A stretch of DNA of 64,000 nucleotides from Minisyncoccota bacterium (lineage in GTDB: Bacteria; Patescibacteriota; Minisyncoccia; Minisyncoccales; JAQTVQ01): positions 3,510 to 67,509 of the forward strand of contig JAQTVQ010000002.1 in assembly GCA_028706715.1 (NCBI GenBank). Direction: 5' to 3'. Below the pieces are notes generated by a model that saw only the letters and a list, made by a program, of their open reading frames with translations, was not told the origin of the DNA and made no database searches. Numbering within the stretch: position 1 is the stretch's first letter; every line of letters begins with the position of its first letter. Made by a program: the position numbers and the translations under genes. Positions 3,774-42,752 of this stretch are shown here, piece by piece.

Positions 3774-3777
3774 CGAT

Positions 3778-5894: not shown

Positions 5895-7688
5895 ATGAAA
5901 AACATTACCCCAAAAGATCTTAAAAAAATGGTTCTCTATTCCTGCGAGAGGATAGAAAAAGAGAAAGAGAACATAAACAAAATTAATGTTTTTCCTATAC
6001 CGGACCAAGACACGGGGAATAATCTTGCCAAGACTCTTGCAGGAATAAAAGAAGCGATTGAAAACAAAAACTATAATTCGGCCGAAGATTTGGCCAATGA
6101 TATTTTGGAGGCATCTCTCTCCAGCGCCCAAGGAAACGCAGGAGTGATTTACACCGGTTTTTTAGCCGGTTTTTTATCGCAAATCGGCCGAAAAGATATT
6201 GACGCCAAAACTTTGGGAGAAGCCTTTCGCAAAGGAGCTGAAAGGGCGAAGCAATCAATCCAAAACCCAAAAGAAGGCACTATTCTCAATGTAATAACCG
6301 CTGCCGCTGAAAGCCTTGAAAAAGAAGCTAAAAAGCAAAAAAATATTCCCTCTGCTTTGAAAGAAGCTTCCAAGGCGGCCGGAGAGGCTCTTTTAAAAAC
6401 TCGGGAGCAAATGCCTGTTTTTAAAAAAGCCAATGTTGTTGATGCGGGAGGGCTTGGGTTTGTGATGATTTTGGAAAGCTATCTTGACGCATTAAAAGAC
6501 AAAAAAACAGCTTCTTTCTCCAAGATCAAGCCGTTGGAAAAAGCCAAGAATATCGTCCAGATAATATCCGCTCGCTTTGAAGTGGTGGCTCTCATTGAAG
6601 ATCCTAGAGCCAGCGACATTGAAATGCGCAGATTTTTATCCCGTTTTGGCAATTCTTTGGATATTGTTCAAATAAAAAACAAAATGAAAATCCACATCCA
6701 TACCGATCTTCCGGATGATGTCGTCTCCGCCATAAGGCAAAAAGGACGGATTGTTTCTTTAAGGACCGAAGATATGGCAAAAGAGATAGTGGGAGAGCCT
6801 TCAATCAAAAAAACAACAATCGGATTGGTCACCGATCCTCTTGCCAATCTGACCGATAAGATTATCAGCCGTTACGACATAGAAATAGTTAAGTATGTTT
6901 ATAGCTGGCCGGAAGAGAATATGCTAAGAGGGGAAAATATCTACCAAAAAATGAAAGACGCCGCTTCCAAGGGGATAGCCAACCTGCCCAAAACGTCCCA
7001 GCCGAGCCCGAAAGACTTCCTTGAAGCGTTTAAAAAGAAGCTGGAGCAGGGGTATAAAGACGTTCTTTGCATCAATTTCTCTTCCAAACTTTCAGGAGGA
7101 TACAATTCCGCCTGCCAAGCTAAAAACCTGTTGCCTGAAAACCAAAAGCAAAAAATCCACATTTTTGATTCTATGAACGCCAGCGCCGGACAAGCCTTAA
7201 TCGTTTTAAGGGCCATTGAGCTTATACAAACGAGAAGAAATATCAAAGAAGCGCTGTCCAGCCTCAAAAAAGAAGCGGACAAGGTAAAGATGTACGGGAT
7301 GCCTCAAGATCCCAAATGGCTGGAATGGGGCGGCCGCATCAGCAAGAGCCAAGCCCAATGGTTAAAAAGACTTCAAAAAATAAGAATCAATCCTTTGCTT
7401 GGGATCAAAAAAGGAAAGATAGAAAAAATAGGATTCAGCGCAGGGGCAAAAGAAATGTCCGAGGCTCTTTTTAAAAAAATAATGTCTGACACAAAAATTT
7501 TGAGAAAAGAAAATAAGAACATCCGCATCGTCATAACGCATTGCGACAATCTCCAAGGAGCCAAAAAGCTTAAAGAAATGCTAAGACAAGAAAATTTTGA
7601 AGTTTCTTTTGTCAATTTGACCGATTCAGTCATCGGCGTCCATACGGGACCGGGGACGCTGCTTGCCGCATGGACCGAAATAGATTAA
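5895..7688 (+). CDS. fakA: Fatty acid kinase FakA-like (DAK2 domain fused to a DegV-like domain)
   Basis: The N-terminal half is Dak2-like (DQDTGNNLAKTL...AQGNAGVIYTGF). The C-terminal half is DegV-like (SQPSPKDFLEAFKKKLEQGY...INFSSKLSGGYNSA...IFDSMNASAGQALIVL). At 597 aa, the size matches YloV/FakA. Confidence 0.65.
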   Translation: MKNITPKDLKKMVLYSCERIEKEKENINKINVFPIPDQDTGNNLAKTLAGIKEAIENKNYNSAEDLANDILEASLSSAQGNAGVIYTGFLAGFLSQIGRKDIDAKTLGEAFRKGAERAKQSIQNPKEGTILNVITAAAESLEKEAKKQKNIPSALKEASKAAGEALLKTREQMPVFKKANVVDAGGLGFVMILESYLDALKDKKTASFSKIKPLEKAKNIVQIISARFEVVALIEDPRASDIEMRRFLSRFGNSLDIVQIKNKMKIHIHTDLPDDVVSAIRQKGRIVSLRTEDMAKEIVGEPSIKKTTIGLVTDPLANLTDKIISRYDIEIVKYVYSWPEENMLRGENIYQKMKDAASKGIANLPKTSQPSPKDFLEAFKKKLEQGYKDVLCINFSSKLSGGYNSACQAKNLLPENQKQKIHIFDSMNASAGQALIVLRAIELIQTRRNIKEALSSLKKEADKVKMYGMPQDPKWLEWGGRISKSQAQWLKRLQKIRINPLLGIKKGKIEKIGFSAGAKEMSEALFKKIMSDTKILRKENKNIRIVITHCDNLQGAKKLKEMLRQENFEVSFVNLTDSVIGVHTGPGTLLAAWTEID

Positions 7689-7730
7689 CAAATAAATCAA
7701 AGTTGGAAAATCAAAATACAAGCGGGAGAA

Positions 7731-7790
7731 TATATCATCGCAAAGCGATACAATAATTTTACATTTTGATACTTGCATTTAAATTAAAGC
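7731..7790. repeat. ~60-nt intergenic repeat element, copy A
   Basis: TATATCATCGCAAAGCGATACAATAATTTTACATTTTGATACTTGCATTTAAATT matches the reverse complement of 22330..22392 nearly base for base. Confidence 0.6.
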
Positions 7791-7849
7791 GCCATTGAAG
7801 ATAAAAAGCCAGAAGTTATCTGAAATTTAATTTTATATTTAATAATACT

Positions 7850-8971
7850 ATGTACATCAAAGGCGTCGGAATGACAAAATTTGATTACAGCCAAAAACAA
7901 TGGTGGGAATTTGCTTATGAAGCGGCCTTGGACGCCTTGGAAGACGCAAAAATGAAAGCAAGCCAGCTTGACGCAATAGTATTAAGCACCATCTCCAGCG
8001 CCGGAGGAGGAGAGCACCAAACGCATAAAGTTTCTTTAATCTCCGATCTTTTTAAAACCCACATACCGATAATAGAAACTCCTTCCGTATGCTCCGGAGG
8101 GGGAGTGGCTTTTTGGACGGCAAACCGGCTCGGTTTTAAAAATGTTTTGGCTTTGAGCGGAGAGAAAGCGGTGGACAATCGCACCGAAATTACAACCGAT
8201 TTGATAATGTCCGCCGCAGACCGCTCCATAGAACAGACGGAAGGGATGATCTTTCCGGCTCAAAACGCCTTTGTTTGGCAGGAATATATGAAAAAATATA
8301 AAGCCACGATGGAAGACCTTTCTTTAATCTCTTATAAAAACCATCAGAACGCGGCTTTAAACCCAAAGGCTTATTATTATAAAAGGCAAGTGTCCTTGGA
8401 AGATATTAAAAAATCCCCGGAAGTCGCTTCTCCCTTGCGCTTAATGGACTGCTCCATGTCGGTTAACGGCGGAGCGGCCGCGATTTTAACTCAAGAAAAA
8501 ACCGACATAGAGGTGGCAGGATCGGGATTCGCAACCGATTATCTTCTTACTTTCGGAAGGGAGGAGACTCACCATTTTCGCGCTACCGAATTGGCGGCAA
8601 AAAGCGCCTACGAGCAAGCCCGGATTTCTCCTAAGGATATTGATGTCGCCGAACTCCACGACGCTTTTTCTCCCATAGAGCTTTTTTCCTATGAAGATTT
8701 GGGGTTCGTGCCGAAAGGACAAGGAGCCGAGCTTATAAGGTCGGGAAAAATAAATTTGGGAGGAGAGTTTCCAATCAACCCATCGGGAGGATTGAAAGCC
8801 AAAGGACATCCCATTTCAGTAACCGGATTGGCTCAAATTTATGAAATTACGAAACAGCTTAGAGGACAGTGCGGAGAGAGGCAGGCGAAAAACGCGCGCA
8901 TCGGATTATGCCAAAATATCGGAGGAGCGGGGGGAAGCATTACAGTGCATATCTTGAGAAAAATTAAATAA
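7850..8971 (+). CDS. Thiolase-like protein of the archaeal/SCP-x type (acetyl-CoA C-acetyltransferase family)
   Basis: GVGMTKF...LDAIVLSTISSAGGGEHQ...ETPSVCSGGGVAF. The active-site Cys context is typical of the thiolases that pair with DUF35 proteins. Confidence 0.7.
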   Translation: MYIKGVGMTKFDYSQKQWWEFAYEAALDALEDAKMKASQLDAIVLSTISSAGGGEHQTHKVSLISDLFKTHIPIIETPSVCSGGGVAFWTANRLGFKNVLALSGEKAVDNRTEITTDLIMSAADRSIEQTEGMIFPAQNAFVWQEYMKKYKATMEDLSLISYKNHQNAALNPKAYYYKRQVSLEDIKKSPEVASPLRLMDCSMSVNGGAAAILTQEKTDIEVAGSGFATDYLLTFGREETHHFRATELAAKSAYEQARISPKDIDVAELHDAFSPIELFSYEDLGFVPKGQGAELIRSGKINLGGEFPINPSGGLKAKGHPISVTGLAQIYEITKQLRGQCGERQAKNARIGLCQNIGGAGGSITVHILRKIK

Positions 8972-9464
8972 TTTTAAAATTGGAAAGAAGATCGTTAAAA
9001 TATTTTTTAATTAAAGGAGAAGATTCAATAACGCAGACCCCTTTGCCGGGCTGGCCGTATACAACGGCAAATCCTTTTTCAGACAACAGCACACAGGGAA
9101 TGGCAAGCAAATCTTCTTCACCTTCAACAAAAACGTTTTTGTTGAAAAAAATCGCTTCTTTGATAATCCTCCACGATTCCGACTGTATCGTCCCCGCCGG
9201 ATTTTCCAAAAAAAGATCATAACCCAACCCTTTTGGAACCGACATTCTCTGCGTCTTGCCGTCAAATATTTTAACATTGGAAGGCAAGTTTAAAGAACAA
9301 TAGTCTCCGACCGTAATCACTTTTTTAAAATTTCTTTGCCACGCAAGCCGGTTAAACCTTATTGATACTTCGTCGTCCGAACCGAAAATAGGAAAGCCTA
9401 TCGGCTCCCGCAATTTTTCCCTTAATGAATCCGGCAAAATGTAAGTTTGAAAGAAAACAGGCAT
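8964..9464 (-). CDS. Hypothetical protein that resembles the DUF359/COG1909 family (archaeal GTP-dependent dephospho-CoA kinase); assignment is tentative
   Basis: 166 aa with VFVEGEEDLLAIPCVLL...VVYGQPGKGVCVI. Family membership is from memory of the conserved EGEEDL-type motif. Confidence 0.3.
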   Translation of the reverse strand: MPVFFQTYILPDSLREKLREPIGFPIFGSDDEVSIRFNRLAWQRNFKKVITVGDYCSLNLPSNVKIFDGKTQRMSVPKGLGYDLFLENPAGTIQSESWRIIKEAIFFNKNVFVEGEEDLLAIPCVLLSEKGFAVVYGQPGKGVCVIESSPLIKKYFNDLLSNFKII

Positions 9465-9556
9465 AAGAAGGCGGCAAATTAAAAAATACCTTGTTTAAAA
9501 AACAAAATCAATAGAAATTAAAATGGTCCTCCAGCGGACGAAAAACCAATAATATT

Positions 9557-10588
9557 ATGTTTTACCAATGCCCGAAATGCAAAAGAAAATGGCAATATCC
9601 GGTTAAAAAATGTCCGGACTGCTTTGAAATGCTTGAAAAAATGAACTCTAAAACGGCAAAAGTTTTTGCCGTCTCCAAGATAAGCGTTCCTTCTTTGGCC
9701 CATCCCCATGTTCCTTATTTCGCTCTGCTTTTGGAAGATGAATTTAAAAACAAGTGGGCCCAAAAAAGCTTTAAAGAATATTCCGTTGGCCAATCCGTTG
9801 ATTATCCCGCTTCAGCGGACGCCAAAACCGTGGCAATTTGGCGCATCAAATATGATCTTTCCGAAGCAATTGAAAAAATCATCGGCTTAATCGGCGAACC
9901 AAACATAAAGCCAAAAAGCAAAATATTGATAATCCCGGCATTAAACGAGCCCAGGCATCCTTATTTCAAAAATAATACTTCTCCTGACTTTTTGGAGCAG
10001 ACCATTCTCCTCCTGATAAACCGCGGAGCTCAAAAAGAAAATATCCAAATAGCGGGGCAAAGCTTTAACGACATTCCCATTGAAGCATGCGCCATGAAGT
10101 CGGGATTGCTCAATGTCTGCCTTAAATACGGGATCCCTCCTTTGGATCTTTCCAAAATCCCTTTTGCCAAAAAGGATGATTTGGAGATTTCCGAAAATGT
10201 TTTTTCGGCGGATATAATTTTAAATCTTGCCATGCTTAAGACAGGAAAGGCCTGCGCTTCTGAAAATCTTTTTAAATTTTTAAATAAAAAAAATTATTTG
10301 GGATTGAAATATCTTTACGGAGAAAAAGAAATTTTTAAGAAAATACAGACCGTCCTGCCCGAAATATTGACTTTGGCGGAAGCCGACAGAATCCAAACAG
10401 AAGAAAAATTCGTCAGCTTTCTCGGTCTTGCCATGGCAAGCCGCGATTCCCTTGGGCTGGATGCCGTTTTTAACAAAATAAGACCCGGCAAGGCCTTGCC
10501 CAAAATATTGGCGGATATTAAGATGGAAGATGTTCTTATCGCCGGAAGGCAATTGGAAGAGTCCAAATTTGACAATATAAATATTTAA
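9557..10588 (+). CDS. DUF35-like Zn-ribbon/OB-fold protein (thiolase partner) fused to an uncharacterised ~230-aa C-terminal domain
   Basis: The N-terminus MFYQCPKCKRKWQYPVKKCPDCFE is a C4 zinc ribbon followed by an OB-like stretch, as in DUF35 proteins that complex with archaeal thiolase/HMG-CoA synthase. The C-terminal domain is unrecognised. Confidence 0.45.
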   Translation: MFYQCPKCKRKWQYPVKKCPDCFEMLEKMNSKTAKVFAVSKISVPSLAHPHVPYFALLLEDEFKNKWAQKSFKEYSVGQSVDYPASADAKTVAIWRIKYDLSEAIEKIIGLIGEPNIKPKSKILIIPALNEPRHPYFKNNTSPDFLEQTILLLINRGAQKENIQIAGQSFNDIPIEACAMKSGLLNVCLKYGIPPLDLSKIPFAKKDDLEISENVFSADIILNLAMLKTGKACASENLFKFLNKKNYLGLKYLYGEKEIFKKIQTVLPEILTLAEADRIQTEEKFVSFLGLAMASRDSLGLDAVFNKIRPGKALPKILADIKMEDVLIAGRQLEESKFDNINI

Positions 10589-10605
10589 AAAATAGAACAA
10601 AAAAA

Positions 10606-11349
10606 ATGAAAAATAAAATCGTTTTAGTAACAGGATCGTCTCAAGGGATAGGAAGAGCAATCGCTCTAAAATTTGCCGCTCTCGGAGCGCAAATCGCTTT
10701 AAACGATATCGCCTGCCAGGAAGAAAAATTAAAAGCCGTTAAATCAGAAATGGAAAACTTTGGGGCAAAAGCCGAATATTTCTTGGCCGACGTCTCCAAT
10801 TTTGAAGAAGTTGAAAAAATGACGGCCGCGATAAAAGAAAATTTCAGCGGATTGGACATTCTAGTAAACAACGCCGGCATCGCCAAAGACAGGACTCTTG
10901 CCAAAATGACGGCTGAAGAATGGCAAAAAGTAATTGATGTTAATCTGACCAGCGTGTTCAATTGCTCTAAAAACGCTTTGCCTCTTCTGATTGCAAGCCA
11001 AGGAAGCATAGTCAATATTTCTTCATTCTCCGCTTTAAGAGGAAATTTCGGACAGGCAAATTACACCGCGGCAAAAGCGGGAATTATCGGTTTTACCAAA
11101 ACTTTGTCAAAAGAAGTCGGAAAATTCGGAGTAAGAGTTAACGCAGTGGCCCCCGGGTTCATTGAATCAAATATGACCCAGGCAATGGATATGCCCGAAG
11201 AAATTAAAATGATGGTAAAAAAGCTCACCTCTCTCGGGAGAGCCGGCCAGCCTGAAGAAGTGGCAAACGCAGTCGCTTTTCTCGCTTCATCCGAAGCAAG
11301 TTTTATTACCGGAACAGTCTTAAACATAGACGGAGGGCTGGCGATATAA
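10606..11349 (+). CDS. fabG: 3-oxoacyl-(ACP/CoA) reductase, SDR family (FabG-like)
   Basis: VLVTGSSQGIGRAIA, NNAGI, YTAAKAG...VNAVAPGFIESNMT are the classical SDR/FabG motifs. Confidence 0.8.
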   Translation: MKNKIVLVTGSSQGIGRAIALKFAALGAQIALNDIACQEEKLKAVKSEMENFGAKAEYFLADVSNFEEVEKMTAAIKENFSGLDILVNNAGIAKDRTLAKMTAEEWQKVIDVNLTSVFNCSKNALPLLIASQGSIVNISSFSALRGNFGQANYTAAKAGIIGFTKTLSKEVGKFGVRVNAVAPGFIESNMTQAMDMPEEIKMMVKKLTSLGRAGQPEEVANAVAFLASSEASFITGTVLNIDGGLAI

Positions 11350-11515
11350 AACAATAAATAATAAATAACATAATTGACCATTGCCTCACAAGCTTTGGAA
11401 AACAAAAAAACATGTTAGCAATAAGCCAAAAACAAGTTAAAAACTTCTTCCTTTAAACAATATAAAAATCGTTATTAAAGCGGTTGAAAACGCTTTCGGC
11501 GATTACGGCAGAGAT

Positions 11516-12387
11516 TTGGTTCAGATGCCCTGCAAGCAATATCTTTATTTTACCGAAAACAACGGCGATTTAAGGGTGATGCCTTCTTATTCTTCGGTTT
11601 TAAAAATGGCCGGAACAAAAATCGTTAACGTCCATCCCGACAATCCGAAAAAAGGATTGCTGACCGTTATGGCCAGCATTCTTTTAAACGATCCCAAAAC
11701 AGGAATGCCCGTATCAATTATGGATGGAAGCTACATCACCGCCATGAGAACCGGCGCCGCCGGAGCGGTGGCAACCAAATATTTGGCTAGAGAAGACGCC
11801 ATTACTTTAGGAGTTGTCGGAGCCGGGATCCAGGCCGTCTATCAAATCGCCGCCATCTCTAAAGTCCGCAAACTTAAATCAATAGCGGTTGCCGATCCCA
11901 ATGAAAAAGCCGTAAAAACCTTAATTAAAACATTGGAGAAAGAAGGAATAGAAGTCCGCGAAGCAAAAATAGAAGAAGTTTGCGGAATGGATATTCTGAC
12001 AACAACCACCCCTGTCAGAAAGCCGATTATCAAAAAAGAGTGGATTAGGCCCGGAACGCATATCAATGCCATCGGCGCGGACGCGGAAGGCAAAGAAGAG
12101 CTTGAACCGGATATTTTAAGAGAAGCAAAATAATTATTGATGATTGGGCCCAAGCCAGCCATTCCGGAGAGATAAACGTTCCGGTCAGCCAAGGGATAAT
12201 ATCCAAAGAAAACGTTTGGGCCGGGCTTGGAGACATTGTAGCCGGAAAAAAAATTGGAAGAAACAGCCCCGAAGAGATAACTATGTTTGATTCTACCGGT
12301 TTGGGACTCCAAGATCTTTACACTGCCGTTGAAGTCTTAAAGCTGGCAAAAAAACAAGGAGTCGGCAAAGAAATAGAACTCATCTAG
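11516..12387 (+). pseudogene. Ornithine cyclodeaminase/mu-crystallin family gene with an unusual or missing 5' start and a -1 frameshift at 12127..12133
   Basis: The first frame (to the TAA at 12131..12133) encodes the Rossmann part (GVVGAGIQAVYQ...INAIGADAEGKEELEPDILREAK*). The family C-terminus (IIIDDWAQASHSGEIN...GRNSPEEITMFDSTGLGLQDL) continues in the -1 frame from 12127 to 12387. The junction is a 4-A run. The frame is open to 11441 upstream, but no ATG is present. Confidence 0.55.
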
Positions 12388-12505
12388 ATTGTAGCTTGCA
12401 GGAGTCTCTCCTTCGGAGAGAAAGGAATAATAATATCATGTCCTTCTTATCCGCTCTTAAACGGATAAAACTTCCTACAAGCTAATTCCTACAAGCTCAA
12501 AATTT

Positions 12506-14005
12506 ATGCTTTATTCCAAAGAACAAATTAAAAAAATTATTCCTTACGACGATCCCTTTCTTTGGGTTGACGAGATAGAAAAGATAGAAGGAGACACTAT
12601 CTTCGGCTATAAGCAAACCTCTCCCAACGATTCTCATTTCAAGGGCCACTTTGTTGATTTTCCCATTATGCCCGGAGTTTTAGTGGTTGAAGGCCTTGCC
12701 CAAACAGGAACCCTTTTGCTCCGCGAAAAGCTGGGCGGAAACCATCAAGAAAAACATATCCTGGCTTATCAGGTAAGAAACACCCTGTTCTATTCGCCCA
12801 TAATGCCCGGGGACAAGATTAAATACAAAGTCAGGCTTCTCGGAACATACGGCGCTAAAATCTCCAACTTTGTCGGAGAAGCTTATGTTGGAGACGCCTT
12901 AAAGTGCGAGTTAAGGTTCTCCGCGGCAATAATGGACAAAAAAGAGATGAAAGAAAAGTTTCTAGCAAAAGAAAGAGGCTCTTCCCAAGAAAAGAAAAAA
13001 TTATTCAACCTTCCGGAACTAAAAGTGGGCAGGCTAAAGGCAAAGCTTCCTATTATTCAAGGGGGAATGGCTGTAAGAGTTTCCTTGCATAAACTGGCCG
13101 GAAATGTCGCCAAAGAAGGAGGAGTCGGAATTATCGCGGTTTCAGGAATGAAAGACTCAAGAGAAGTAAAAGAAGAAATCAAAAAAGCGCGCGAAATTGC
13201 AAAGGGAAACGGCGCAATCGGCATAAACATAATGGGAGTTGTCGGCCAGTTTAAACAACTGGTGGCGGCGGCGGTTGAAGAAAAAGTTGATCTTATAGTC
13301 CAAGGAGCCGGATTTCGCACCGATATTTTTGAAATGGCAGGAAAAGAATCCATTCCGGTTTTTGCGATGGCTTCGTCGGTAAAGGTGGCCAAAAAAGCGG
13401 AAGAAGCCGGAGCGTCGGCAGTCGTCATTGAAGGATGCGATGCCGGCGGACATTTAGGATTTCCCAAAGGACGCCCGTTCAAAAAAACAATAGATATTGT
13501 TAAAGAAGCCGTAAAGGAAGTCAAAATTCCCATTATAGCGGCCGGAGGGATTTTTGACGGAAAAGATATAGTTGAAATGCTAAAAGCCGGAGCAAAAGGA
13601 GTGCAAATGGCAACCCGTTTTGTCGCCACTGAAGAATGCGACGCAGACATAAAGTTCAAGCAAGCGCATATCAATGCCAAAAAAGAAGACGTGGTGATTA
13701 TCCATTCTCCGGTAGGACTGCCCGGCAGGGCCGTCAAAACTCCTTTTGTTGAAAAGCTGCTAAAAGGCTCCGCTCCAAAACCTGATCCGATTGAGTGCCA
13801 AGGATGCATAGGCCCAGTCTGCGATAAAAGCTATTGCATATTAAAAGTCTTGGAAAACGCCAGAAAAGGAGATTTGGAAAACGGATTGGTTTTCGCCGGA
13901 TCCAATGTATGGAGAGTCAACAAAATGACAACAGTAAAAGAGCTTATCAAGGAGCTGGTTGACGAGGCGAACGGAATACTGGCAAAAGAGCCTCTCTATA
14001 TATAA
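12506..14005 (+). CDS. Fusion protein: FabZ/FabA-type hotdog 3-hydroxyacyl dehydratase (N-terminal) plus FabK/nitronate-monooxygenase-type FMN enoyl reductase (C-terminal)
   Basis: The N-terminus PYDDPFLWVDEIEKIE...SHFKGHFVDFPIMPGVLVVEGLAQTG is the FabZ signature. The C-terminus IIQGGMAVRVS...IEGCDAGGHLG...IPIIAAGGIFDGKD is NMO/FabK-like. Confidence 0.7.
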   Translation: MLYSKEQIKKIIPYDDPFLWVDEIEKIEGDTIFGYKQTSPNDSHFKGHFVDFPIMPGVLVVEGLAQTGTLLLREKLGGNHQEKHILAYQVRNTLFYSPIMPGDKIKYKVRLLGTYGAKISNFVGEAYVGDALKCELRFSAAIMDKKEMKEKFLAKERGSSQEKKKLFNLPELKVGRLKAKLPIIQGGMAVRVSLHKLAGNVAKEGGVGIIAVSGMKDSREVKEEIKKAREIAKGNGAIGINIMGVVGQFKQLVAAAVEEKVDLIVQGAGFRTDIFEMAGKESIPVFAMASSVKVAKKAEEAGASAVVIEGCDAGGHLGFPKGRPFKKTIDIVKEAVKEVKIPIIAAGGIFDGKDIVEMLKAGAKGVQMATRFVATEECDADIKFKQAHINAKKEDVVIIHSPVGLPGRAVKTPFVEKLLKGSAPKPDPIECQGCIGPVCDKSYCILKVLENARKGDLENGLVFAGSNVWRVNKMTTVKELIKELVDEANGILAKEPLYI

Positions 14006-14020
14006 AAATTTCAATAACCA

Positions 14021-14045
14021 ATTTACCTGCCTACCGGCAGGCATT
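14021..14045. promoter_or_regulatory. Conserved palindromic intergenic element, copy 1 (TTTACCTGCCTaCCGGCAGGCA)
   Basis: Between the FabZ-FabK fusion stop (14005) and the fabK start. Near-identical to the copy at 18368..18396. Confidence 0.5.
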
Positions 14046-14133
14046 GGATTTTCAATGCTTCAATGATCAAACCGCATACGCTTATTTGAGAATTGAAACA
14101 TTATATTATTTATTGAAAATTAAAAATTGAAAA

Positions 14134-15066
14134 TTGAAAATTTATTCGCAGAATATGCCTGGAGAAAACAAACTTACAAAACTTCTGAATATAGGATATC
14201 CGATCATCCAAGGAGGAATGGCCGGTATTTCCGAATCAAAACTGGTTTCCGCGGTTTCCAATTCCAACGGACTGGGAACTATAGGAGCGGGACTGATGCC
14301 GGCTTCCTGGCTGGAGCAGGAAATCGTAAAAACGCGGCAGCTGACAGAAAAGCCTTTTGCGGTAAATCTTTTTATGCAAAATCCAAAGGTTGAAGAGATA
14401 GTTAAGACCATTATCAAAAATAAAGTTTCTATCGTCTTTATCGGAGGAGGAAATCCCATGCTCGTTATGCCTTACCTGAAAAACGCCGGAATAATTACAA
14501 TCCCAGTCGTTCCCTCTCCAAGGCTCGCGAAAAAAATGGAAGATAGCGGCGCGGACGCCGTAGTTGTTGAAGGAATAGAATCGGGAGGGCATCTTGGTCC
14601 AAATACCACTTTTTGCCTCATCCCCCAAACGGCAAAGCTAGTTGAAAAAATTCCCGTTATCGCGGCCGGAGGGATTTTTGACGGAAAGACTGCAGCAATG
14701 GCTATGGATGCCGGAGCCGACGGCGTCCAAATAGGCACAAGATTTTTGGCTGCTTCGGAGTGCGTTGTTTCTGAAAGCTACAAGCAAAGAATTTTGGACG
14801 CCTCCGCAGACGATATTGAGGTCGTCTTGGCTTTTACCGGCCACCCTTTGAGAGTAATCAAAAACAAATGGGCCGAAGATATGAAAAAGCTGGAAGCAAA
14901 AAACGTCTTCCCTGAAGAATTGAACGCAGGGAAAATAGCCGGATCCTTGGGAGGGGAGAATGTAGATAATATCCCTCTTTTGGCGGGATTATGCTCGGCA
15001 AGCATCAAGGAAATAAAATCCTGCCGGGAGATTATAGAAGAAATTGCCGAATCTTTAAAAAAATGA
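14134..15066 (+). CDS. fabK: FabK-like FMN-dependent enoyl-(acyl) reductase (nitronate monooxygenase family)
   Basis: YPIIQGGMAGISESKLVSAVSNSNGLGTIGAG, GIESGGHLG, IPVIAAGGIFDGKTAAMAMDAGADGVQIGTRF. Confidence 0.7.
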   Translation: MKIYSQNMPGENKLTKLLNIGYPIIQGGMAGISESKLVSAVSNSNGLGTIGAGLMPASWLEQEIVKTRQLTEKPFAVNLFMQNPKVEEIVKTIIKNKVSIVFIGGGNPMLVMPYLKNAGIITIPVVPSPRLAKKMEDSGADAVVVEGIESGGHLGPNTTFCLIPQTAKLVEKIPVIAAGGIFDGKTAAMAMDAGADGVQIGTRFLAASECVVSESYKQRILDASADDIEVVLAFTGHPLRVIKNKWAEDMKKLEAKNVFPEELNAGKIAGSLGGENVDNIPLLAGLCSASIKEIKSCREIIEEIAESLKK

Positions 15067-15719
15067 ACAAAACAGGGGCAACAATTTGCAAAATACTCCT
15101 TAAACCGGCCATAGAAAAGACGTTCATTAATAAAATAAGAGGAGAGAAAAACATTCCGAAGGGCAATTTTATATTGGCCGCGAATCATCAAAGCAACCTT
15201 GACCATATTATTATCGGGTCTTTCCTTGTTCCGAGAAAATTCAAATTTATGGGACAAACCGACGGGCACAAAGGCGTAAAAAAAATATTGGTAAATTTAT
15301 TTTACGGCTTTTTTGGAGTAATTCCCTTAGACAGAGGCAGCAGCAAATCCAAAAAAACAGCCATTCAAAAAGCGGTGGAGGCTATAAAAAAAGGATATGT
15401 TCTAGGCATTTATCCCGAAGGCACAAGAACCCGCACAGGAACGCTGGGAGAGGCAAAACCCGGAGTGGCTAAAATATTTTTGGCCAGCGGTGCGCCGATT
15501 GTCCCGATAGCCATCAAGGGAGCCTTTGAGCTTTTTCCTCCTCACGGAAAATTAAAAATTAAAAGATCCATAGAAGTAAGGATAGGAAAGCCGATTTACT
15601 TTAAAAAAGAGCTGAAAGCGGGGCAAGGAATTCCTTACCGATCCGAAAAGTACCAAAATTTATGCAAAAAAATTTCCGAAAAAGTAATGTCTAAAATTTC
15701 GGAACTGTCCAAAAAATAA
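15064..15719 (+). CDS. plsC: 1-acyl-sn-glycerol-3-phosphate acyltransferase (PlsC family)
   Basis: The HX4D motif ANHQSNLDH and PEGTRT are present. The start was chosen at the ATG at 15064, which overlaps the upstream stop. The ORF track frame extends to 14991. Confidence 0.7.
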
Positions 15720-15723
15720 TATT

Positions 15724-17253
15724 ATGGCAAAAATAAAAAAAATACTAATAGCCAACAGGGGAGAAGTAGCTTTGCGCATAATCCGAACCTGCAAGGAAAT
15801 GGGAATAAAAACGGCGGCTCTTTGCCCTATGCCCGGACAGGAAAAGTTTTTTTTGGAAACCAAATTTGCCGATGAATATCATTTTTTAAACCAAGAAGGA
15901 AGCCATGGATACTTAAGCTCTGAAAAAATTATAAGCATAGCGAAAAAAGCAAACGCTGACGCTATCCATCCGGGATACGGATTCCTTTCTGAAAATTGGA
16001 AGTTCGCAGAGCTTTGCGAAAAAAATAAAATCAAGTTTATCGGACCCGATCCGGACATCTTAAAAATTTTTGAAGATAAAATAAAAGCTAAAAATTTTGC
16101 CGAAAGCGAAGGGCTCCCGATTTTGCCGGCAAGCAAAGGATCTATAAAAACTCAAAAAGACTTGATGGAATGGGCTCAAAAAATTGGCTCTCCTTTTGTT
16201 CTCAAAGCCCAAAGAGGAGGAGGAGGGATCGGCATAAGAATAATTGACGGAGAGATTACCGTAAACCAAATTTCTTCAATTTCTTCCGATATCCAAAGGC
16301 AAATGTCGGTTTCTTTTTCCGACGCGGATTTTTTTCTGGAAAAATATCTGCCCGAGGCCAAGCATATAGAATTTCAAATCCTCGGAGACGGAAAAAACGC
16401 CGTGCATCTCGGAGAAAGGGAATGCACTATCCAAAGAAGATTCCAAAAACTGCTTGAAGAAGCTCCTTCCTCTTTTCTAGACAGCGAGTTAAGAGAAAAA
16501 ATGGGATCGCTGGCGGCCGGACTGGCTAAAAAACTAAAGTATAAAGGAGCCGCTACGGTAGAATTTTTGGTAGACAGAAATAAAAATTTTTATTTTATGG
16601 AGGTTAATCCGCGGCTTCAAGTTGAACATCCGATTACCGAAGCGATTACCGGCATTGATATAGTCGCCGAGCAAATTAAAATAAGCCAAGGAGAAGAATT
16701 GGGCTTCAGCCAAAAAGACATTCGCCTGAACGGCTGGGCGATAGAAGCGAGAATCAACGCCGAAGATCCCCAAAAAAAATTCCGGCCATGCCCGGGGACC
16801 GTTCAAAAATATCTGCCTCCGGGAGGACAGGGAATTTTTATGCATACTTTTCTTCAACAGGGACAAAAAATTTATCCTTATTTTGATTCTATGATGGCAA
16901 AGCTGGTTGCTTGCGGTAAAAACCGGCAAGAAGCTATCGCCAAGCTTAACCGCGCGCTGGACGAATTAATTATTGAAGGAGTCCCCACCACCTCTCCCTT
17001 TTTCAAAATAGTCGCCGCTGACAGCAGCTTTTTGAAAGGAGATTTTTTTACCAATTTTATAGAGAGAAAGGACATCGCGCAGAAGCTTTCCAAGGAACCG
17101 GCTCAGCTTTTCTGCGAGGTGTGCGAAGTAGAAGAAAAAGATATCGCTGAAATTGTTTTTCATATATATAAAGAGCTGAAAAAGGAAAAGCCCGAATCTC
17201 CGCAAAAAACATCAAATTGGATTTTGGCCCAAAGATTAAAAATGCTGGAATAA
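15724..17253 (+). CDS. accC: Biotin carboxylase subunit of acetyl/acyl-CoA carboxylase
   Basis: MAKIKKILIANRGEVALRIIRTCKEMGI..., ATP-grasp motifs, 509 aa. Confidence 0.9.
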   Translation: MAKIKKILIANRGEVALRIIRTCKEMGIKTAALCPMPGQEKFFLETKFADEYHFLNQEGSHGYLSSEKIISIAKKANADAIHPGYGFLSENWKFAELCEKNKIKFIGPDPDILKIFEDKIKAKNFAESEGLPILPASKGSIKTQKDLMEWAQKIGSPFVLKAQRGGGGIGIRIIDGEITVNQISSISSDIQRQMSVSFSDADFFLEKYLPEAKHIEFQILGDGKNAVHLGERECTIQRRFQKLLEEAPSSFLDSELREKMGSLAAGLAKKLKYKGAATVEFLVDRNKNFYFMEVNPRLQVEHPITEAITGIDIVAEQIKISQGEELGFSQKDIRLNGWAIEARINAEDPQKKFRPCPGTVQKYLPPGGQGIFMHTFLQQGQKIYPYFDSMMAKLVACGKNRQEAIAKLNRALDELIIEGVPTTSPFFKIVAADSSFLKGDFFTNFIERKDIAQKLSKEPAQLFCEVCEVEEKDIAEIVFHIYKELKKEKPESPQKTSNWILAQRLKMLE

Positions 17254-17305
17254 AATATTGCGGCAGCGATGCGGCAATATGGAACAGCTTTGAATCCTCT
17301 TAAAA

Positions 17306-17689
17306 ATGCAAATAAAAATAAAAGGAAAAATTTATAACATTGAGGTTTTTGAACCGCAGAAGGGATCTGTTACGGTCAGGGTAAACGGCCAAGAATTTAA
17401 TTTCGGAGAAAAAAAGAATTCTTGCGGCCGCTTAAAAGAAAAAGGCAAAGGGAAAGGAACCTCCTCAAAAGAATCTAAAAAAGAAATAAAAGCCCCCATA
17501 ACGGGAGTTATTTCCAAGATATTTGCAAAAGAAGGAGATCCGATCCTTCCCGGACAAAAAATTTTAAATTTATGCGCTATGAAAATGGAAAACGAGATAG
17601 TGTCGGAGATAGAAGGAAAAATAAAAAAAGTCGCGGTTAAAGAGGGGCAGACGGTAAAGTCCAACGAACTGTTGGCGGAATTAGAATGA
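17306..17689 (+). CDS. accB: Biotin carboxyl carrier protein
   Basis: The C-terminal biotinyl domain carries the AMKM motif (LCAMKMENEI). Confidence 0.8.
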   Translation: MQIKIKGKIYNIEVFEPQKGSVTVRVNGQEFNFGEKKNSCGRLKEKGKGKGTSSKESKKEIKAPITGVISKIFAKEGDPILPGQKILNLCAMKMENEIVSEIEGKIKKVAVKEGQTVKSNELLAELE

Positions 17690-17728
17690 TTGCGTTATTT
17701 CCTAATTTTTAAGATAATTCAATAAAAA

Positions 17729-18277
17729 TTGAAAATTAAAACATCTATGGTCGTCAACTCTTTCCCTCTGCTAAATTCTACCAATATCAAAGCCAAAGAG
17801 CTCGCCCGGGAAGGAGCTGATCCTTGGACGGTTATTCTTGCAGAAGAACAGGCCGGCGGTTACGGCAAAGAAAAACGCCAATGGTTCTCGCCCAAAGGAG
17901 GATTGTATTTTTCAGTCATTCTTCCCAAAAGCGACATTAAGGATATCCAGATCTTAACCGTTCTAGCGGCTTTTTCCGTTGCGAGAATATTAAATGAAGA
18001 ATACAAAGTCCAAGCTTTAATCAAGCCGCCAAACGATATTTGGGTGAATAATAAGAAAATAGCCGGTATTTTAACGGAGAATATCATTGCCGGAGAAAAA
18101 GCGCAAAGTTCGGTTATAGGCATAGGGATAAACACGAATATTAAAAATTTCCCGAAAGATTTGGCTAATATCGCCGCTTCGCTTAAAATAGAAACAGGGC
18201 AAGAATCAGATAATAAAGATTTGATGAAAAAAATAACGGAAGAGCTTAAAAAGCAATTGGAAGCGATAAGCCAATAA
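17729..18277 (+). CDS. birA: Biotin--protein ligase, catalytic domain only
   Basis: ILAEEQAGGYGKEKRQWFSPKGGLYFSVIL matches the BPL signature (GRGRRGR.W.SP.G.LY.S). Confidence 0.6.
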   Translation: MKIKTSMVVNSFPLLNSTNIKAKELAREGADPWTVILAEEQAGGYGKEKRQWFSPKGGLYFSVILPKSDIKDIQILTVLAAFSVARILNEEYKVQALIKPPNDIWVNNKKIAGILTENIIAGEKAQSSVIGIGINTNIKNFPKDLANIAASLKIETGQESDNKDLMKKITEELKKQLEAISQ

Positions 18278-18367
18278 GCCGAATTAAAAATGCAAATATC
18301 AAAAATTAAAATGACAATGCAAAATGTTAAAATGATTGAAACGGAAATTTTATAATTTTACATTGTT

Positions 18368-18396
18368 ATTTTACCTGCCTGCCGGCAGGCAAGCAT
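18368..18396. promoter_or_regulatory. Conserved palindromic intergenic element, copy 2 (TTTTACCTGCCTGCCGGCAGGCAAGCATT). The core GCCTGCCGGCAGGC is a perfect 14-nt palindrome.
   Basis: Between birA and the carboxyltransferase start. Shares 22 nt with the copy at 14021..14045. Confidence 0.5.
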
Positions 18397-18418
18397 TTTG
18401 ATTTTTAAGTTATTTACT

Positions 18419-19957
18419 ATGTCTTTTGAAGAACAAATAAAAAAACTGGAACAAAAAACCGATGCTCTTGACTCTCCTGATTTTACCGTTAAGCAGCGTC
18501 AAAAAGGAAAGCTGACGGCAAGAGAAAGGATAGAAGCTCTCCTAGACAAAGACAGCTTTGTTGAACTTAATCCTTTCGCGCAATCCAGGTTTGACGATTT
18601 TGGAATGGACAAAAAGAAAGTTTCCGGAGATGCGGTCATTTCAGGCTTCGGCAAGATTAACGGACGGCAGGTCTGCCTTTACAGCCAAGACTTTTCAAAA
18701 ATAGGAGGATCTCTGGGAGAAATGCACGGACAAAAAATAATCAGCGTTCTAAAAATGGCTAGAGAAACCGGCTGTCCTTCAATCGGAATCATTGACAGCG
18801 GAGGAGCGCGCATCCAAGAAGGAATATCAAGCCTTGACGGCTATGCCGGAATCTTTAGAGAAATGATCAAATCTTCAGGAGTAATCCCTCAAATTTCCGT
18901 TATCCTGGGGCCTTCCGCCGGAGGAGCTTCTTACGCTCCGGGGCTCTCCGACTTTATTTTTATGGTTGAAGGAATTTCTCAAATGTATATTACCGGTCCG
19001 GAAGTAATTAAATCGGTAACCGGAGAAAAAATTTCTTTCAACGATCTCGGAGGAGCTTCCGTCCATGCTTTGCAGAGCGGATGCGCCCACTTTATTTTCC
19101 AAAACGAAAACGAATGTTTGGAAAATGTTAAGAAACTTTTAAGCTTCCTTCCTTCAAACAACTTGGAAAGCCCTTCCGCCGAAAAGCCCTGCGGCGCAAA
19201 AAACTCCTGCCCAAAGCTTTTGGAAATAGTGCCTGACGAAGAAGGGAAGGGATACGATATGAAAGAAGTGATTGAAGAAATTTTTGACCCGGATTCTTTT
19301 TTTGAAGTCCAAGAGGGTTTCGCTCCCAATTCAATTTCCGGTTTCGGCCGGCTGGGGGGATATGTTGTGGGAATTGCGGCCAACCAAGCCAAAACCATGG
19401 CCGGAACATTGGATGTCAATTCTTCGGATAAAATCGCCCGCTTTGTAAGATTCTGCGATTGTTTCAATATCCCAGTCATTAACTTGATTGACACTCCCGG
19501 ATATCTCCCGGGAACGGATCAAGAGCATAAAGGAATAATTCGGCACGGAGCGAAAATATTATACGCTTACGCCGAAGCCGGCGTTCCTAAAATAAGCTTG
19601 ATTTTAAGAAAAGCTTTCGGCGGAGCCTATATCGCTCTTGCGTCAAAAGAGCTTGGATATGACAAAGTCGTCGCATGGCCTTCGGCTCAAATAGGAGTAA
19701 TGGGCCCAAAGCAAGCTGTAAAAATTATTTTCCGCAAAGAGCTGGAAAAAAATCGGCACAATCCCGAATTTGAAAAAGAAAAAATTTCCGAGCTTTCCGA
19801 AACATTTTTAAGCCCGTGGCAGGCCGCCAAGCTTGGAAAGATAGACTTGATAATCAAGCCTCAAGAGACTAGAACCGTTTTGTTCAAGCTGTTGGAGTCT
19901 TTGCTTAATAAGCGCGGGAATAAAATCCCTAGAAAGCACGGGAATATTCCGCTATAA
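18419..19957 (+). CDS. Acyl-CoA carboxylase carboxyltransferase subunit (PccB/AccD5-like, fused beta-alpha carboxyltransferase)
   Basis: GKLTARERIEALLDKDSFVEL...ISGFGKINGRQVCLYSQDFSKIGGSLGE. Start taken at the ATG at 18419; the ORF track frame starts at a TTG at 18398. Confidence 0.8.
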   Translation: MSFEEQIKKLEQKTDALDSPDFTVKQRQKGKLTARERIEALLDKDSFVELNPFAQSRFDDFGMDKKKVSGDAVISGFGKINGRQVCLYSQDFSKIGGSLGEMHGQKIISVLKMARETGCPSIGIIDSGGARIQEGISSLDGYAGIFREMIKSSGVIPQISVILGPSAGGASYAPGLSDFIFMVEGISQMYITGPEVIKSVTGEKISFNDLGGASVHALQSGCAHFIFQNENECLENVKKLLSFLPSNNLESPSAEKPCGAKNSCPKLLEIVPDEEGKGYDMKEVIEEIFDPDSFFEVQEGFAPNSISGFGRLGGYVVGIAANQAKTMAGTLDVNSSDKIARFVRFCDCFNIPVINLIDTPGYLPGTDQEHKGIIRHGAKILYAYAEAGVPKISLILRKAFGGAYIALASKELGYDKVVAWPSAQIGVMGPKQAVKIIFRKELEKNRHNPEFEKEKISELSETFLSPWQAAKLGKIDLIIKPQETRTVLFKLLESLLNKRGNKIPRKHGNIPL

Positions 19958-19967
19958 TATTATTAAC

Positions 19968-20837
19968 ATGGCAAAAGTCAGCATTATTGTAGGCCAAAGC
20001 GCCTCTCTCTCCAAACAAATAATGGAAAAATATTCTTTGACAATGATTCCTTTTGTAGTTGACTGGAAGTCTGAAAAAAGCAACCTCAACCCGGAAAGCA
20101 TTTTCCAAAAGATGGCTGACGCCGAAGAAAACGGTTCGGAAGATTTGCCAAAAACCTCTCATCCGGCGCCATGGCTTTTTAAAAGCTTTTTTGAAGAAAA
20201 GCTTAAAAATTCCGATTCGGTTCTTTTTGTTTCTTTAAGTTCTAAGCTGTCAGCCACTTTTGAATCCGCCAACACCGGCAAAGAAATGCTCAATCCTTCC
20301 CTCAAGGAAAAAGTTTTTCTTTTTGACAGCCAGAATGTCAGCGCCGGAGAAGGATTGATCGCAATCAAAGCGGCAGAAATTATCGGACAAGGAAAATCAA
20401 TTCAAAAAGCCGTTGAAGAATTGCAGGATTTTAAACAAAAAATTTGTTCAGCGGCGATTGTTGAAAATATCAAATGGCTGGAAAAAGGCGGAAGGGCAAA
20501 AGGCTTGTCAAAACTTGCATTGCCTTTTTTGCAAAAAACGGGAGCGAATATCGTCCTTAAAATTAAAAACGGGAAGATAGAGCCGGCTATGCTGTCCCTA
20601 AAGAACAGCAACCAAGCCTCGGCGGTCTTTAATTTTTTTAAAAAAGACAAAAACAGGCAGAAAGCGCGAGTAGCGATAACTTATGCGCAGAACGAACAAG
20701 AAGCCAAAGACCTCAAAAATCTGATATTGAAAGAATTTCCCGAAACCGAGATAGCTTTCGTCTGTCCGATTGATAATATTATAGGGATACATACCGGTCC
20801 CAACGCCTTAATCTGCGCGTGGCATCCTTTGGAATGA
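19968..20837 (+). CDS. fakB: DegV-family fatty-acid-binding protein (FakB-like)
   Basis: SHPAPWLFKSFFEEKL...VSLSSKLSATFESA...FDSQNVSAGEGLIAIKAAE. Confidence 0.75.
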   Translation: MAKVSIIVGQSASLSKQIMEKYSLTMIPFVVDWKSEKSNLNPESIFQKMADAEENGSEDLPKTSHPAPWLFKSFFEEKLKNSDSVLFVSLSSKLSATFESANTGKEMLNPSLKEKVFLFDSQNVSAGEGLIAIKAAEIIGQGKSIQKAVEELQDFKQKICSAAIVENIKWLEKGGRAKGLSKLALPFLQKTGANIVLKIKNGKIEPAMLSLKNSNQASAVFNFFKKDKNRQKARVAITYAQNEQEAKDLKNLILKEFPETEIAFVCPIDNIIGIHTGPNALICAWHPLE

Positions 20838-20838
20838 T

Positions 20839-21498
20839 ATGCTTTTAAATTGTTATTTGCCAGCCGCTCTTATTTCTTATTTCCTCGGCTCAATTTCCGC
20901 CGCCGTTTTGGTTGGAAAGCTTTTTACCAAAAAAGATTTTCAGAAAGAGGGAAGCGGAAACCTTGGAGCCACCAACGCTTTGCGCATTGTCAGCAAAGAG
21001 AAGGGAAAAGCGTGGGGAGTTTTTGCTTTTCTTGCCGTTTTTCTTTTTGACGCCGGAAAGGCCGTCGCCGCATGCCTTATCTCTCTAAAAATTGTTCCCG
21101 ATTACAATATTGCTTTGACTTTAGCTGTTTTTTTCGCCGTTCTCGGACACAATTATTCCGTATTTCTAAAATTCCGCGGAGGAAGAGGAGCCGCATCTCT
21201 CCTCGGAGTCTTTTTGTTTTTTGACTGGCGCGTTTTCTTGGCATGGTTCGGAACTTTTTTAACAACAGCCTCCATCTTTGAAATAATTGAGAGCAAAAAA
21301 TTTGATAAAAAAACAATTGCCAGAGCCGCAAACCGCCAAATTATCGGCCGGCTTTTCGGAGAGGTATTTGCGCTCGTTCCCGTTTATTTTCTTAATCAGT
21401 CGCTTTTTTGGCCTTGTTTGCTCGCCACTCCGTTAATCCTGGTTCGGCACAAAGACAGGATAGAAAAACAGCTAAAGGAGATTGCAGAGAAAGATTAG
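20839..21498 (+). CDS. plsY: Glycerol-3-phosphate acyltransferase PlsY
   Basis: GSGNLGATNALRIVSKEKG...LGHNYSVFLKFRGGRGAASLLG. Confidence 0.8.
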   Translation: MLLNCYLPAALISYFLGSISAAVLVGKLFTKKDFQKEGSGNLGATNALRIVSKEKGKAWGVFAFLAVFLFDAGKAVAACLISLKIVPDYNIALTLAVFFAVLGHNYSVFLKFRGGRGAASLLGVFLFFDWRVFLAWFGTFLTTASIFEIIESKKFDKKTIARAANRQIIGRLFGEVFALVPVYFLNQSLFWPCLLATPLILVRHKDRIEKQLKEIAEKD

Positions 21499-35091: not shown

Positions 35092-35099
35092 ATTTACAA

Positions 35100-35516: not shown

Positions 35517-35519
35517 CTT

Positions 35520-36164: not shown

Positions 36165-36177
36165 TTTTTACAAAACA

Positions 36178-37947: not shown

Positions 37948-37960
37948 TTTTTATTAAAAA

Positions 37961-38371: not shown

Positions 38372-38374
38372 AAA

Positions 38375-40033: not shown

Positions 40034-40036
40034 AAT

Positions 40037-42750: not shown

Positions 42751-42752
42751 TT

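Follow-up and report, generated by a model that had tools for sequence, protein, structure and literature searches.

Bacteria of the candidate phyla radiation (CPR, or Patescibacteria) are textbook cases of cells said to be unable to make their own membrane lipids. We describe here a block of lipid genes (positions 5895–21498) in a 64,000-nucleotide stretch of a Minisyncoccota bacterium genome (contig JAQTVQ010000002.1, positions 3,510–67,509; hereafter the window). We read it, with a probability of about one half, as a conserved lipid supercluster of the Paceibacteria (Nealsonbacteria and relatives) encoding a cycle that resembles type II fatty-acid synthesis (FAS II), runs on coenzyme A (CoA) thioesters without acyl carrier protein (ACP), and feeds phospholipid synthesis.

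Closest described systems

Fatty-acid synthesis without ACP is described in Sulfolobus acidocaldarius, where acyl-CoAs are built from acetyl-CoA alone by a complex of a ketothiolase and a DUF35 protein (Saci_1121/1120), a FabG-like reductase (Saci_1104), a MaoC dehydratase (Saci_1085), and an enoyl-CoA reductase of the MDR (medium-chain dehydrogenase/reductase) family (Saci_1115) (bioRxiv 10.1101/2024.07.05.601840). The window cluster shares with this system an SCP2/archaeal-type thiolase with a DUF35-fold protein, a FabG-like short-chain dehydrogenase/reductase (SDR), the lack of ACP and AcpS (here within the window), and the proposed use of CoA thioesters. It differs in having a FabZ hotdog dehydratase (PF07977) instead of MaoC and a FabK-type flavin mononucleotide (FMN) reductase (PF03060) instead of MDR, and in its fusion of DUF35 to DUF362, its clustered biotin carboxylase set, and its FabX-like domain; moreover, the cluster is tied to PlsC, PlsY, and Fak genes for ester phospholipids, and the host is a bacterium.

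The FabK-type FAS II of Streptococcus and Clostridia fab operons is similar in that FabG, FabZ, FabK, acetyl-CoA carboxylase (ACC), and PlsC/PlsY homologs are arranged in an operon-like block. In contrast, the window contains no acpP, fabD, fabH/fabF, acpS, or plsX, has a single PccB-type carboxyltransferase, carries a thiolase in the condensing-enzyme position, encodes a FabG without docking arginines, and has NCBIfam scores below the cutoffs. The archaeal complex of acetoacetyl-CoA thiolase, HMG-CoA synthase (HMGCS), and a DUF35 protein that serves the mevalonate pathway (PDB 6ESQ) contains the closest solved relatives of both the thiolase and the DUF35-fold domain, and the Cys, HDxF, and GHx motifs are kept; here, however, the DUF35 domain is N-terminally shortened and fused to DUF362, the pair always occurs with FabG, and HMGCS is absent from the window and from 40 of the 44 related loci that are long enough to judge. 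All four components of the exogenous fatty-acid incorporation of Firmicutes, FakA, FakB, PlsY, and PlsC, are encoded in the window, but PlsX, which in that system links acyl-phosphate and acyl-ACP, is not found there.

The nearest previous work is that of Probst et al. 2020 (ISME J, PMC7242380), who screened 675 CPR genomes and reported near-complete fatty-acid and phospholipid pathways in some Nealsonbacteria, with FAS-II homologs, PlsY, and PlsC but without AcpS, FabD, PlsB, and PlsX, and who raised a possible ACP-independent pathway for them. This takes up one paragraph in which the condensing enzyme is not named, and the thiolase/DUF35-DUF362 pair, the FabZ-FabX fusion, the DUF359 gene, the Fak acyl-phosphate route, the synteny, and the mevalonate link do not appear in that paper; our literature searches found no follow-up to the idea. 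The central ACP-independent idea is already published as a remark, and what is new here are the specific candidate genes and a hybrid bacterial variant of archaeal ACP-independent synthesis. Because concrete candidate genes are named, the question left by the 2020 study becomes directly testable. An ACP-free pathway that is conserved in a large CPR class and looks complete would alter the picture of cells without lipid synthesis and, if the reading is true, would extend archaeal CoA-based fatty-acid synthesis into the bacteria in hybrid form, with a bearing on how the bacterial/archaeal lipid divide evolved.

Organization and conservation of the cluster

Genes were assigned from the open reading frame (ORF) listing together with Pfam and NCBIfam scans of the window ORFs. 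The genes listed in the original prediction, which was made from the sequence by itself, are present where it placed them, and the scans agree with its calls of an archaeal/SCP-x-type thiolase, FabG, a second FabK, PlsC, the biotin carboxylase–carrier protein–ligase–carboxyltransferase series, FakB, and PlsY. Three further calls, a FabZ-FabK fusion, a DUF35 partner, and an upstream FakA, were right in one part and are revised below. The genes do not form one same-strand block, as had been proposed: all are transcribed rightwards with the exception of the DUF359 gene (8964–9464), which lies antisense, and the block also includes a frameshifted ornithine cyclodeaminase/mu-crystallin (OCD) gene (about 11412–12387) that had not been mentioned.

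A scan with a fusion-protein profile, taking one genome per species, yielded 66 related loci, nearly all from Paceibacterota, Nealsonbacteria, or Parcubacteria, and these include the 44 that are informative. Three of the cluster-bearing genomes are complete, with sizes of about 650–690 kb (CP179887.1, CP179889.1, and CP179892.1), and identical proteins are found in the NCBI metagenome-assembled genome GCA_028709945.1 and in three metagenomes. Mapping with local phmmer places the genes in the order thiolase–(DUF359, antisense)–DUF35/DUF362–FabG–FabZ/FabX–FabK–PlsC–AccC–biotin carboxyl carrier protein (BCCP)–biotin-protein ligase–carboxyltransferase–(PlsY) in 40 of the 44 informative loci; this order is kept in about 40 species, and chance falls far short of explaining the arrangement. 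The related loci frequently carry BioY, a CarS/CdsA-like gene, a CDP-alcohol phosphatidyltransferase, and UppS close by, and the carboxylase and the ligase, often together with BioY, belong to the constant parts of the cluster.

The thiolase and its DUF35-DUF362 partner

The candidate condensing enzyme (7850–8971) is a thiolase of the archaeal acetyl-CoA acetyltransferase (ACAT)/SCP2 type (Pfam Thiolase_C_1, 4e-44). The PDB chains that match it best are 7yvy_A (2e-62), an acetyl-CoA acetyltransferase, and 6esq_A (2e-52), the Methanothermococcus thermolithotrophicus thiolase from the archaeal thiolase/HMGCS/DUF35 complex, with SCP2 thiolases and BbsB ranking behind both. In NCBIfam a general thiolase-domain subfamily model comes first and AcCoTHIOL_METTL, the equivalog model for the M. 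thermolithotrophicus ACAT, comes second, ahead of lipid-transfer-protein models and BbsB. The protein contains Cys81, His270 (within HDAF), His320 (within KGHP), and a QNIGG motif, and the cysteine and the HDxF and GHP histidines are invariant in 120 CPR homologs with 72–100% identity to the window protein. For archaeal ACATs, CxS, HDxF, and GHx motifs have been defined (PMC12960953); here the cysteine motif is C-S-G-G or C-A-G-G, with the Ser of CxS replaced by Gly, and a second cysteine is missing, as neither the HDAF nor the QNIGG motif places one where the general base usually sits.

The product of 9557–10588 (343 aa) had been predicted as a DUF35-like zinc-ribbon/OB (oligonucleotide-binding) partner of the thiolase, which holds for the N-terminal 100 aa or so, the C-terminal DUF362 domain having been missed. 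Pfam finds DUF362 only, with no DUF35 match even at E = 10, and at the N-terminus a CPKC-x10-CPDC motif precedes a beta-rich stretch. In a confident AlphaFold model (35 homologs, pLDDT 92), a Zn ribbon (C5, C8, C19, and C22) and a DUF35-type OB fold occupy about residues 1–100, and the DUF362 domain, which resembles the LarA N-domain, occupies about residues 120–343. Foldseek matches this model to BbsA, PhlB, ChsH2-DUF35, 6esq_E, MucC, Trf, and 3irb, each with a probability of 1.00, such that the Zn-ribbon/OB domain in the predicted structure matches every solved DUF35 protein that partners a thiolase; several homologs are labelled "uncharacterized OB-fold protein" by JGI. Because of the model and its matches to DUF35 structures we regard the protein as a DUF35-DUF362 fusion, and a DUF35-fold protein is thus, on the predicted structure, encoded beside the thiolase.

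Five distant relatives of the thiolase (P0368, P0385, P0421, P0431, and P0436) are about 500–540 aa long and carry at the C-terminus an OB-like extension similar to the OB half of DUF35 but lacking the Zn ribbon, which suggests repeated fusion of the thiolase and DUF35 modules.

The ketoreductase, dehydratase, and enoyl reductase genes

The FabG-like 3-ketoacyl reductase (10606–11349; Pfam adh_short_C2, 3e-70) is an SDR that keeps the Ser/Tyr/Lys triad and scores slightly under the cutoff of TIGR01830 (287.6 bits versus 297.75), with 239 bits to TIGR01829, the acetoacetyl-CoA reductase family. In E. coli FabG, ACP is docked by two arginines, R129 and R172; in an alignment with the E. coli sequence, the corresponding residues of the window protein are Q132 and F174. 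Among 52 CPR homologs position 172 is never Arg or Lys (F, L, T, V, H, or I occurs there), and just one has Arg at position 129.

The next core gene (12506–14005; Pfam FabA-like and NMO) encodes a FabZ dehydratase fused to an FMN TIM-barrel flavoprotein. The FabZ part (residue 1 to about 150) has an intact His/Glu dyad in the motif GHFVDFPIMPGVLVVEGLAQ and scores 98–101 against NCBIfam cutoffs of 113–155. The flavoprotein half, predicted to be FabK, is nearer to Helicobacter pylori FabX (7e1q, 185 bits) than to FabK (7l00, 129 bits). It shares with FabX (PDB 7E1Q) the FMN TIM barrel, an aligned GGH histidine, a conserved T130, and four cysteines (C431, C434, C439, and C444; about nt 13796–13837) in the same C-terminal subdomain. 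These cysteines align into the loop bearing the four [4Fe-4S] ligands of FabX and are kept in 27 of 27 CPR homologs of the fusion flavoprotein but in none of 36 homologs of the second NMO protein, and they probably form a [4Fe-4S] site, although the spacing is CxxCxxxxCxxxxC here versus Cx3Cx3Cx11C in FabX. FabX also differs in not being fused to FabZ and in needing an electron acceptor (O2 in vitro), whereas the host here is probably anaerobic. Mutation of FabX R164 abolishes acyl-ACP binding, and in the phmmer alignment R164 falls in a gap of the fusion protein while R160 and K152 are replaced by Ala and Ser. The loss of docking residues in both FabG and the FabX-like domain is a suggestive, not decisive, pointer to ACP independence. 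We found no earlier description of a FabZ-FabX fusion in the literature searched.

The second NMO protein (14155–15066; Pfam NMO, 7e-69) matches Clostridioides difficile FabK (PDB 7l00, 1e-76) and scores 309 bits against the TIGR03151 cutoff of 453; judged by these matches it is a true FabK relative, and the sole one of the two NMO proteins. With a ketoreductase, a dehydratase, an enoyl reductase, and a probable module for unsaturated fatty acids, the cluster is therefore fuller than the original prediction assumed.

Carboxylase, acyltransferase, and kinase genes

Four genes make up the carboxylase set: a biotin carboxylase of the AccC type (15724–17253; Pfam CPSase_L_D2, Biotin_carb_N, and Biotin_carb_C; NCBIfam accC families at 1e-163, under the cutoffs), BCCP (17306–17689; Biotin_lipoyl, 2e-16) with Lys93 in an AMKM motif, a short biotin-protein ligase consisting of the catalytic domain only (17729–18277; BPL_LplA_LipB, 8e-21), and a carboxyltransferase (18398–19957; Carboxyl_trans, 3e-172; TIGR01117 mmdA, 685 bits against a cutoff of 999). 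The last is one chain of the PccB/MmdA type and not the bacterial AccA and AccD pair.

Upstream of this set is a PlsC-type 1-acylglycerol-3-phosphate acyltransferase gene (15063–15719; Acyltransferase, 2e-27), whose gene call is taken from locus L001, a second assembly of this species; its start and the FabK stop overlap (ATGA), and its HX4D motif is present as NHQSNLD. FabZ, FabG, PlsC, and BCCP all keep their catalytic residues. Downstream are a DegV/FakB-type fatty-acid-binding protein gene (19968–20837; DegV, 2e-52) and plsY, coding for acyl-phosphate:glycerol-3-phosphate acyltransferase (20839–21498; G3P_acyltransf, 6e-36). The FakA-like protein predicted upstream of the thiolase is present at 5895–7688, but its Dak2 (1e-34) and middle (FakA-like_M, 2e-11) domains are fused to a true DegV domain (1.6e-51): the C-terminus scores 176 bits to Pfam DegV versus 21 bits to FakA-like_C, and in NCBIfam the DegV domain reaches 193 bits against a cutoff of 99.7, with FakA_VfrB covering residues 4–296. 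It is thus a fusion of kinase and binding protein, additional to the separate DegV gene.

The antisense DUF359 gene (Pfam DUF359, 6e-24) codes for a CPR bacterial member of the archaeal GTP-dependent dephospho-CoA kinase family, with a match of 2e-18 to NCBIfam deph_CoA_kin_Thcocales that is far under the equivalog cutoff; it is located between the thiolase and DUF35-DUF362 genes in 35 of 67 related loci. In the OCD gene (Pfam OCD_Mu_crystall, 3e-71, for a 205-aa fragment), comparison with L001 shows that a 1-nt deletion within an A-run near 12126 disrupts the frame; this is either a pseudogene or a homopolymer sequencing error. Since only 9 of 66 related loci carry it, at varying positions, we consider it an accessory insertion outside the conserved core.

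Absence of ACP genes from the window and the related loci

The prediction that no FabH, FabF, FabD, FabI, or acpP is encoded in the 64 kb is borne out by the Pfam scan: among all plausible ORFs of the window there is no ketoacyl synthase, FabD, FabI, AcpS or other phosphopantetheinyl transferase, or PlsX, and no ORF matches PP-binding, Acyl_transf_1, or ketoacyl-synt/ACP_syn_III. In a six-frame phmmer search of the window with the ACPs of E. coli and Bacillus subtilis the best E-value was 2.3, and a search for DSL-type motifs in its small ORFs found none. Within ±10 kb in the 66 related loci there is likewise no ACP match, lenient thresholds included.

An 80-aa ORF (8980–9222) was considered as a candidate ACP and set aside; neither Pfam nor phmmer lends it support, and it overlaps with the opposite-strand DUF359 gene.

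A proposed CoA-based pathway

From the domain identities, gene order, catalytic motifs, local lack of ACP-pathway genes, and lost docking residues described above, we infer the individual steps of a CoA-based cycle as follows. The archaeal-type carboxylase, made up of biotin carboxylase, BCCP biotinylated by the clustered ligase, and PccB-type carboxyltransferase, would produce malonyl-CoA. The ACAT-type thiolase, which the DUF35-fold domain of its DUF35-DUF362 partner would hold in a complex, would carry out Claisen condensation on acyl-CoA, either using acetyl-CoA, the building block in Sulfolobus, or decarboxylating malonyl-CoA; the second option would account for the carboxylase. The FabG-like SDR would then reduce 3-ketoacyl-CoA, the FabZ domain would dehydrate the product, and the FabK-type flavoprotein would reduce enoyl-CoA, with the FabX-like iron-sulfur domain fused to FabZ possibly introducing the cis double bond of unsaturated chains. 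For phospholipids, PlsC would acylate position 2 from acyl-CoA, and FakA-DegV and FakB would convert free fatty acids, scavenged or released, to acyl-phosphate for PlsY at position 1, a supply that would answer the question of Probst et al. about the missing PlsX. The DUF359 kinase would complete CoA synthesis, and in lineages with a mevalonate pathway the thiolase may supply that pathway as well.

Several observations weigh against this scheme. No cluster protein reaches an NCBIfam equivalog cutoff, and the characterised FabG, FabZ, FabK, and FabX enzymes nearest to those of the cluster all act on acyl-ACP. Described thiolase/DUF35 systems yield only short or medium chains, C4 (mevalonate) or C6–C10 (Sulfolobus), from acetyl-CoA, and because the characterised archaeal pathway uses acetyl-CoA alone, the clustered carboxylase is left unexplained. 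Thiolases normally do not use malonyl-CoA, so that either a decarboxylative thiolase, which would be new, or some other consumer of malonyl-CoA has to be invoked. The reading of HDAF in place of the SCP2 motif HDCF as a mark of a lost general base and a decarboxylative mechanism is rejected: HDAF is present in 41 and HDCF in 45 of 150 representatives of the thiolase family, the solved ACAT 7yvy likewise carries HDAF, and with both motifs frequent in the family HDAF gives no certain indication of mechanism. No evident route leads from acyl-CoA to acyl-phosphate for PlsY, literature searches on DUF362 function returned nothing useful, the absence of ACP refers to the 64-kb window and to ±10 kb in the relatives, and 5 of the 44 informative loci join the thiolase/DUF35-DUF362/FabG core to mevalonate/isoprenoid genes.

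On balance, the original proposal of a CoA-based cycle feeding PlsC and PlsY is strengthened by the archaeal-type thiolase, the DUF35 fold, the synteny, the lack of a local ACP, the embedded dephospho-CoA kinase gene, and the lost docking arginines. It is weakened by the mevalonate link and the unexplained carboxylase; some of its gene identities were wrong and its central idea was not new.

The retention in the cluster of a complete carboxylase, BCCP, carboxyltransferase, and ligase set suggests malonyl-CoA use. A more specific form of the CoA-based reading is a hybrid ACP-free synthase, in which the thiolase on its DUF35-DUF362 scaffold is a malonyl-CoA-dependent decarboxylative condensing enzyme that feeds CoA-adapted FabG, FabZ, and FabK, with FabZ-FabX making unsaturated chains anaerobically. 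We consider this form unlikely, but if true it would be a third architecture of fatty-acid synthesis, and it may have come together through gene transfer from the archaea that host these episymbionts. Nealsonbacteria are reported as episymbionts of methanogens. The thiolase, DUF35-DUF362, and FabZ-FabX genes are clonable candidates for a new condensing system and for anaerobic desaturation of the FabX type.

Alternative explanations

The alternative that survives best, which we regard as possible if rather doubtful, is that the thiolase and DUF35-DUF362 protein are the acetoacetyl-CoA thiolase of the mevalonate pathway and its partner, and are found beside fatty-acid genes only through a lipid-gene supercluster; FabG, FabZ-FabX, FabK, and ACC would then be without a dedicated condensing enzyme, and would either modify scavenged fatty acids (by elongation, desaturation, or saturation) or rely on a condensing activity that has escaped recognition. 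Among characterised homologs, the archaeal mevalonate ACAT and its DUF35 partner are indeed the closest, and thiolase/DUF35 systems are known chiefly for C4 products. Moreover, isoprenoid genes adjoin the core in five loci, such that the pair may be, or may also be, the thiolase of the mevalonate pathway. In four of these (L010, L014, L017, and L067) FabG is followed by UbiA, a geranylgeranyl-reductase-like protein (GGR), polyprenyl synthase (PPS), IDI, HMGCS, and HMG-CoA reductase (HMGR), though not all in each locus, with a GHMP kinase in addition in L014; in the fifth, L016, PPS-HMGCS-HMGR is inserted between FabG and FabZ/FabX. HMGCS is detected in four of the five (L010, L014, L016, and L067). 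By contrast, 40 of the 44 informative loci contain no mevalonate gene within 10 kb, and neither a mevalonate gene nor any of the other isoprenoid genes just named is found in the 64 kb of the window. FabG accompanies the pair always, in the mevalonate-type loci too, and has no role in the mevalonate pathway; and without a condensing enzyme the conserved ACC, BioY, and biotin-protein ligase genes and a full reduction cycle would be left without a substrate. The fatty-acid and mevalonate roles are, however, not mutually exclusive.

The isoprenoid sets of these relatives look archaeal (L014, 3932–18826; L067, 11894–17800; and also L010, L016, and L017), and also include a CarS-like protein of the CDP-archaeol synthase family and a CDP-alcohol transferase. 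Mevalonate, GGR, UbiA, and CarS-like genes stand in the same cluster in these relatives.

We think it improbable that the cluster encodes an ordinary ACP-dependent FAS II, with acpP, acpS, fabD, and fabH/fabF located elsewhere or overlooked as small or divergent genes, and with a thiolase that is unrelated to the cycle. FabG, FabZ, FabK, FabX, and ACC homologs are normally part of such a system, short acpP genes are easily overlooked in metagenome-assembled genomes, and the searches span 64 kb of this genome and ±10 kb in its relatives. Yet acpP usually lies inside fab clusters and no ACP match was obtained in either the window or the 66 related loci, AcpS, FabD, and PlsX were not found in Nealsonbacteria genomes (PMC7242380), the docking arginines are gone from FabG and the FabX-like domain, and the thiolase and its partner occupy the condensing-enzyme position of a tightly kept operon.

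It is highly improbable that the cluster serves redox balance by a short-chain fermentation in which acetyl-CoA is turned into butyryl-CoA or some other short acyl-CoA, or that it is a degradative beta-oxidation set, in spite of the good TIGR01829 score of FabG and the preference of thiolase/DUF35 systems for short chains, as the cluster is interspersed with PlsC, PlsY, and FakA/FakB (in relatives, also with genes for CDP-alcohol transferases and CarS/CdsA-like proteins), the biotin carboxylase set is kept, the FabX-like domain indicates long-chain unsaturated products, and Pfam finds no acyl-CoA dehydrogenase or electron transfer flavoprotein, crotonase, (S)-3-hydroxyacyl-CoA dehydrogenase, phosphotransbutyrylase, or butyrate kinase among the window ORFs. 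The beta-oxidation reading is rejected with the acyl-CoA dehydrogenase, crotonase, and (S)-3-hydroxyacyl-CoA dehydrogenase genes not found; the original prediction had set neighbouring beta-oxidation genes against its own proposal, and there are none nearby.

Other features of the window

The remaining parts of the window are typical of a CPR genome, with pilins and an ATPase resembling those of type IV secretion systems (T4SS), dnaA-dnaN, penicillin-binding protein PBP1, RuvABC, and few metabolic genes. A defence island (1305–4395) contains an N6-methylase-like gene, an R.Pab1-type restriction endonuclease gene, and a DUF6922/AbiEii toxin-antitoxin pair. Three large ORFs have no Pfam match (25462–27180, 572 aa; 31204–33381, 725 aa; and 54817–55920, 367 aa). 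The T4SS-like block (34621–42254) codes for a PrgI-like protein, a VirB4/TraG-type ATPase, and several T4SS_pilin-domain proteins, one of which has a Peptidase_C39-like domain, and a further pilin-domain gene (21817–22248) adjoins the lipid cluster. At 42307–47039, rnpA, yidC, and a Jag/KhpB-like gene on the leftwards-transcribed strand face dnaA-dnaN on the other; the cumulative GC skew has its minimum near 44–46 kb, and this is probably the replication origin region.

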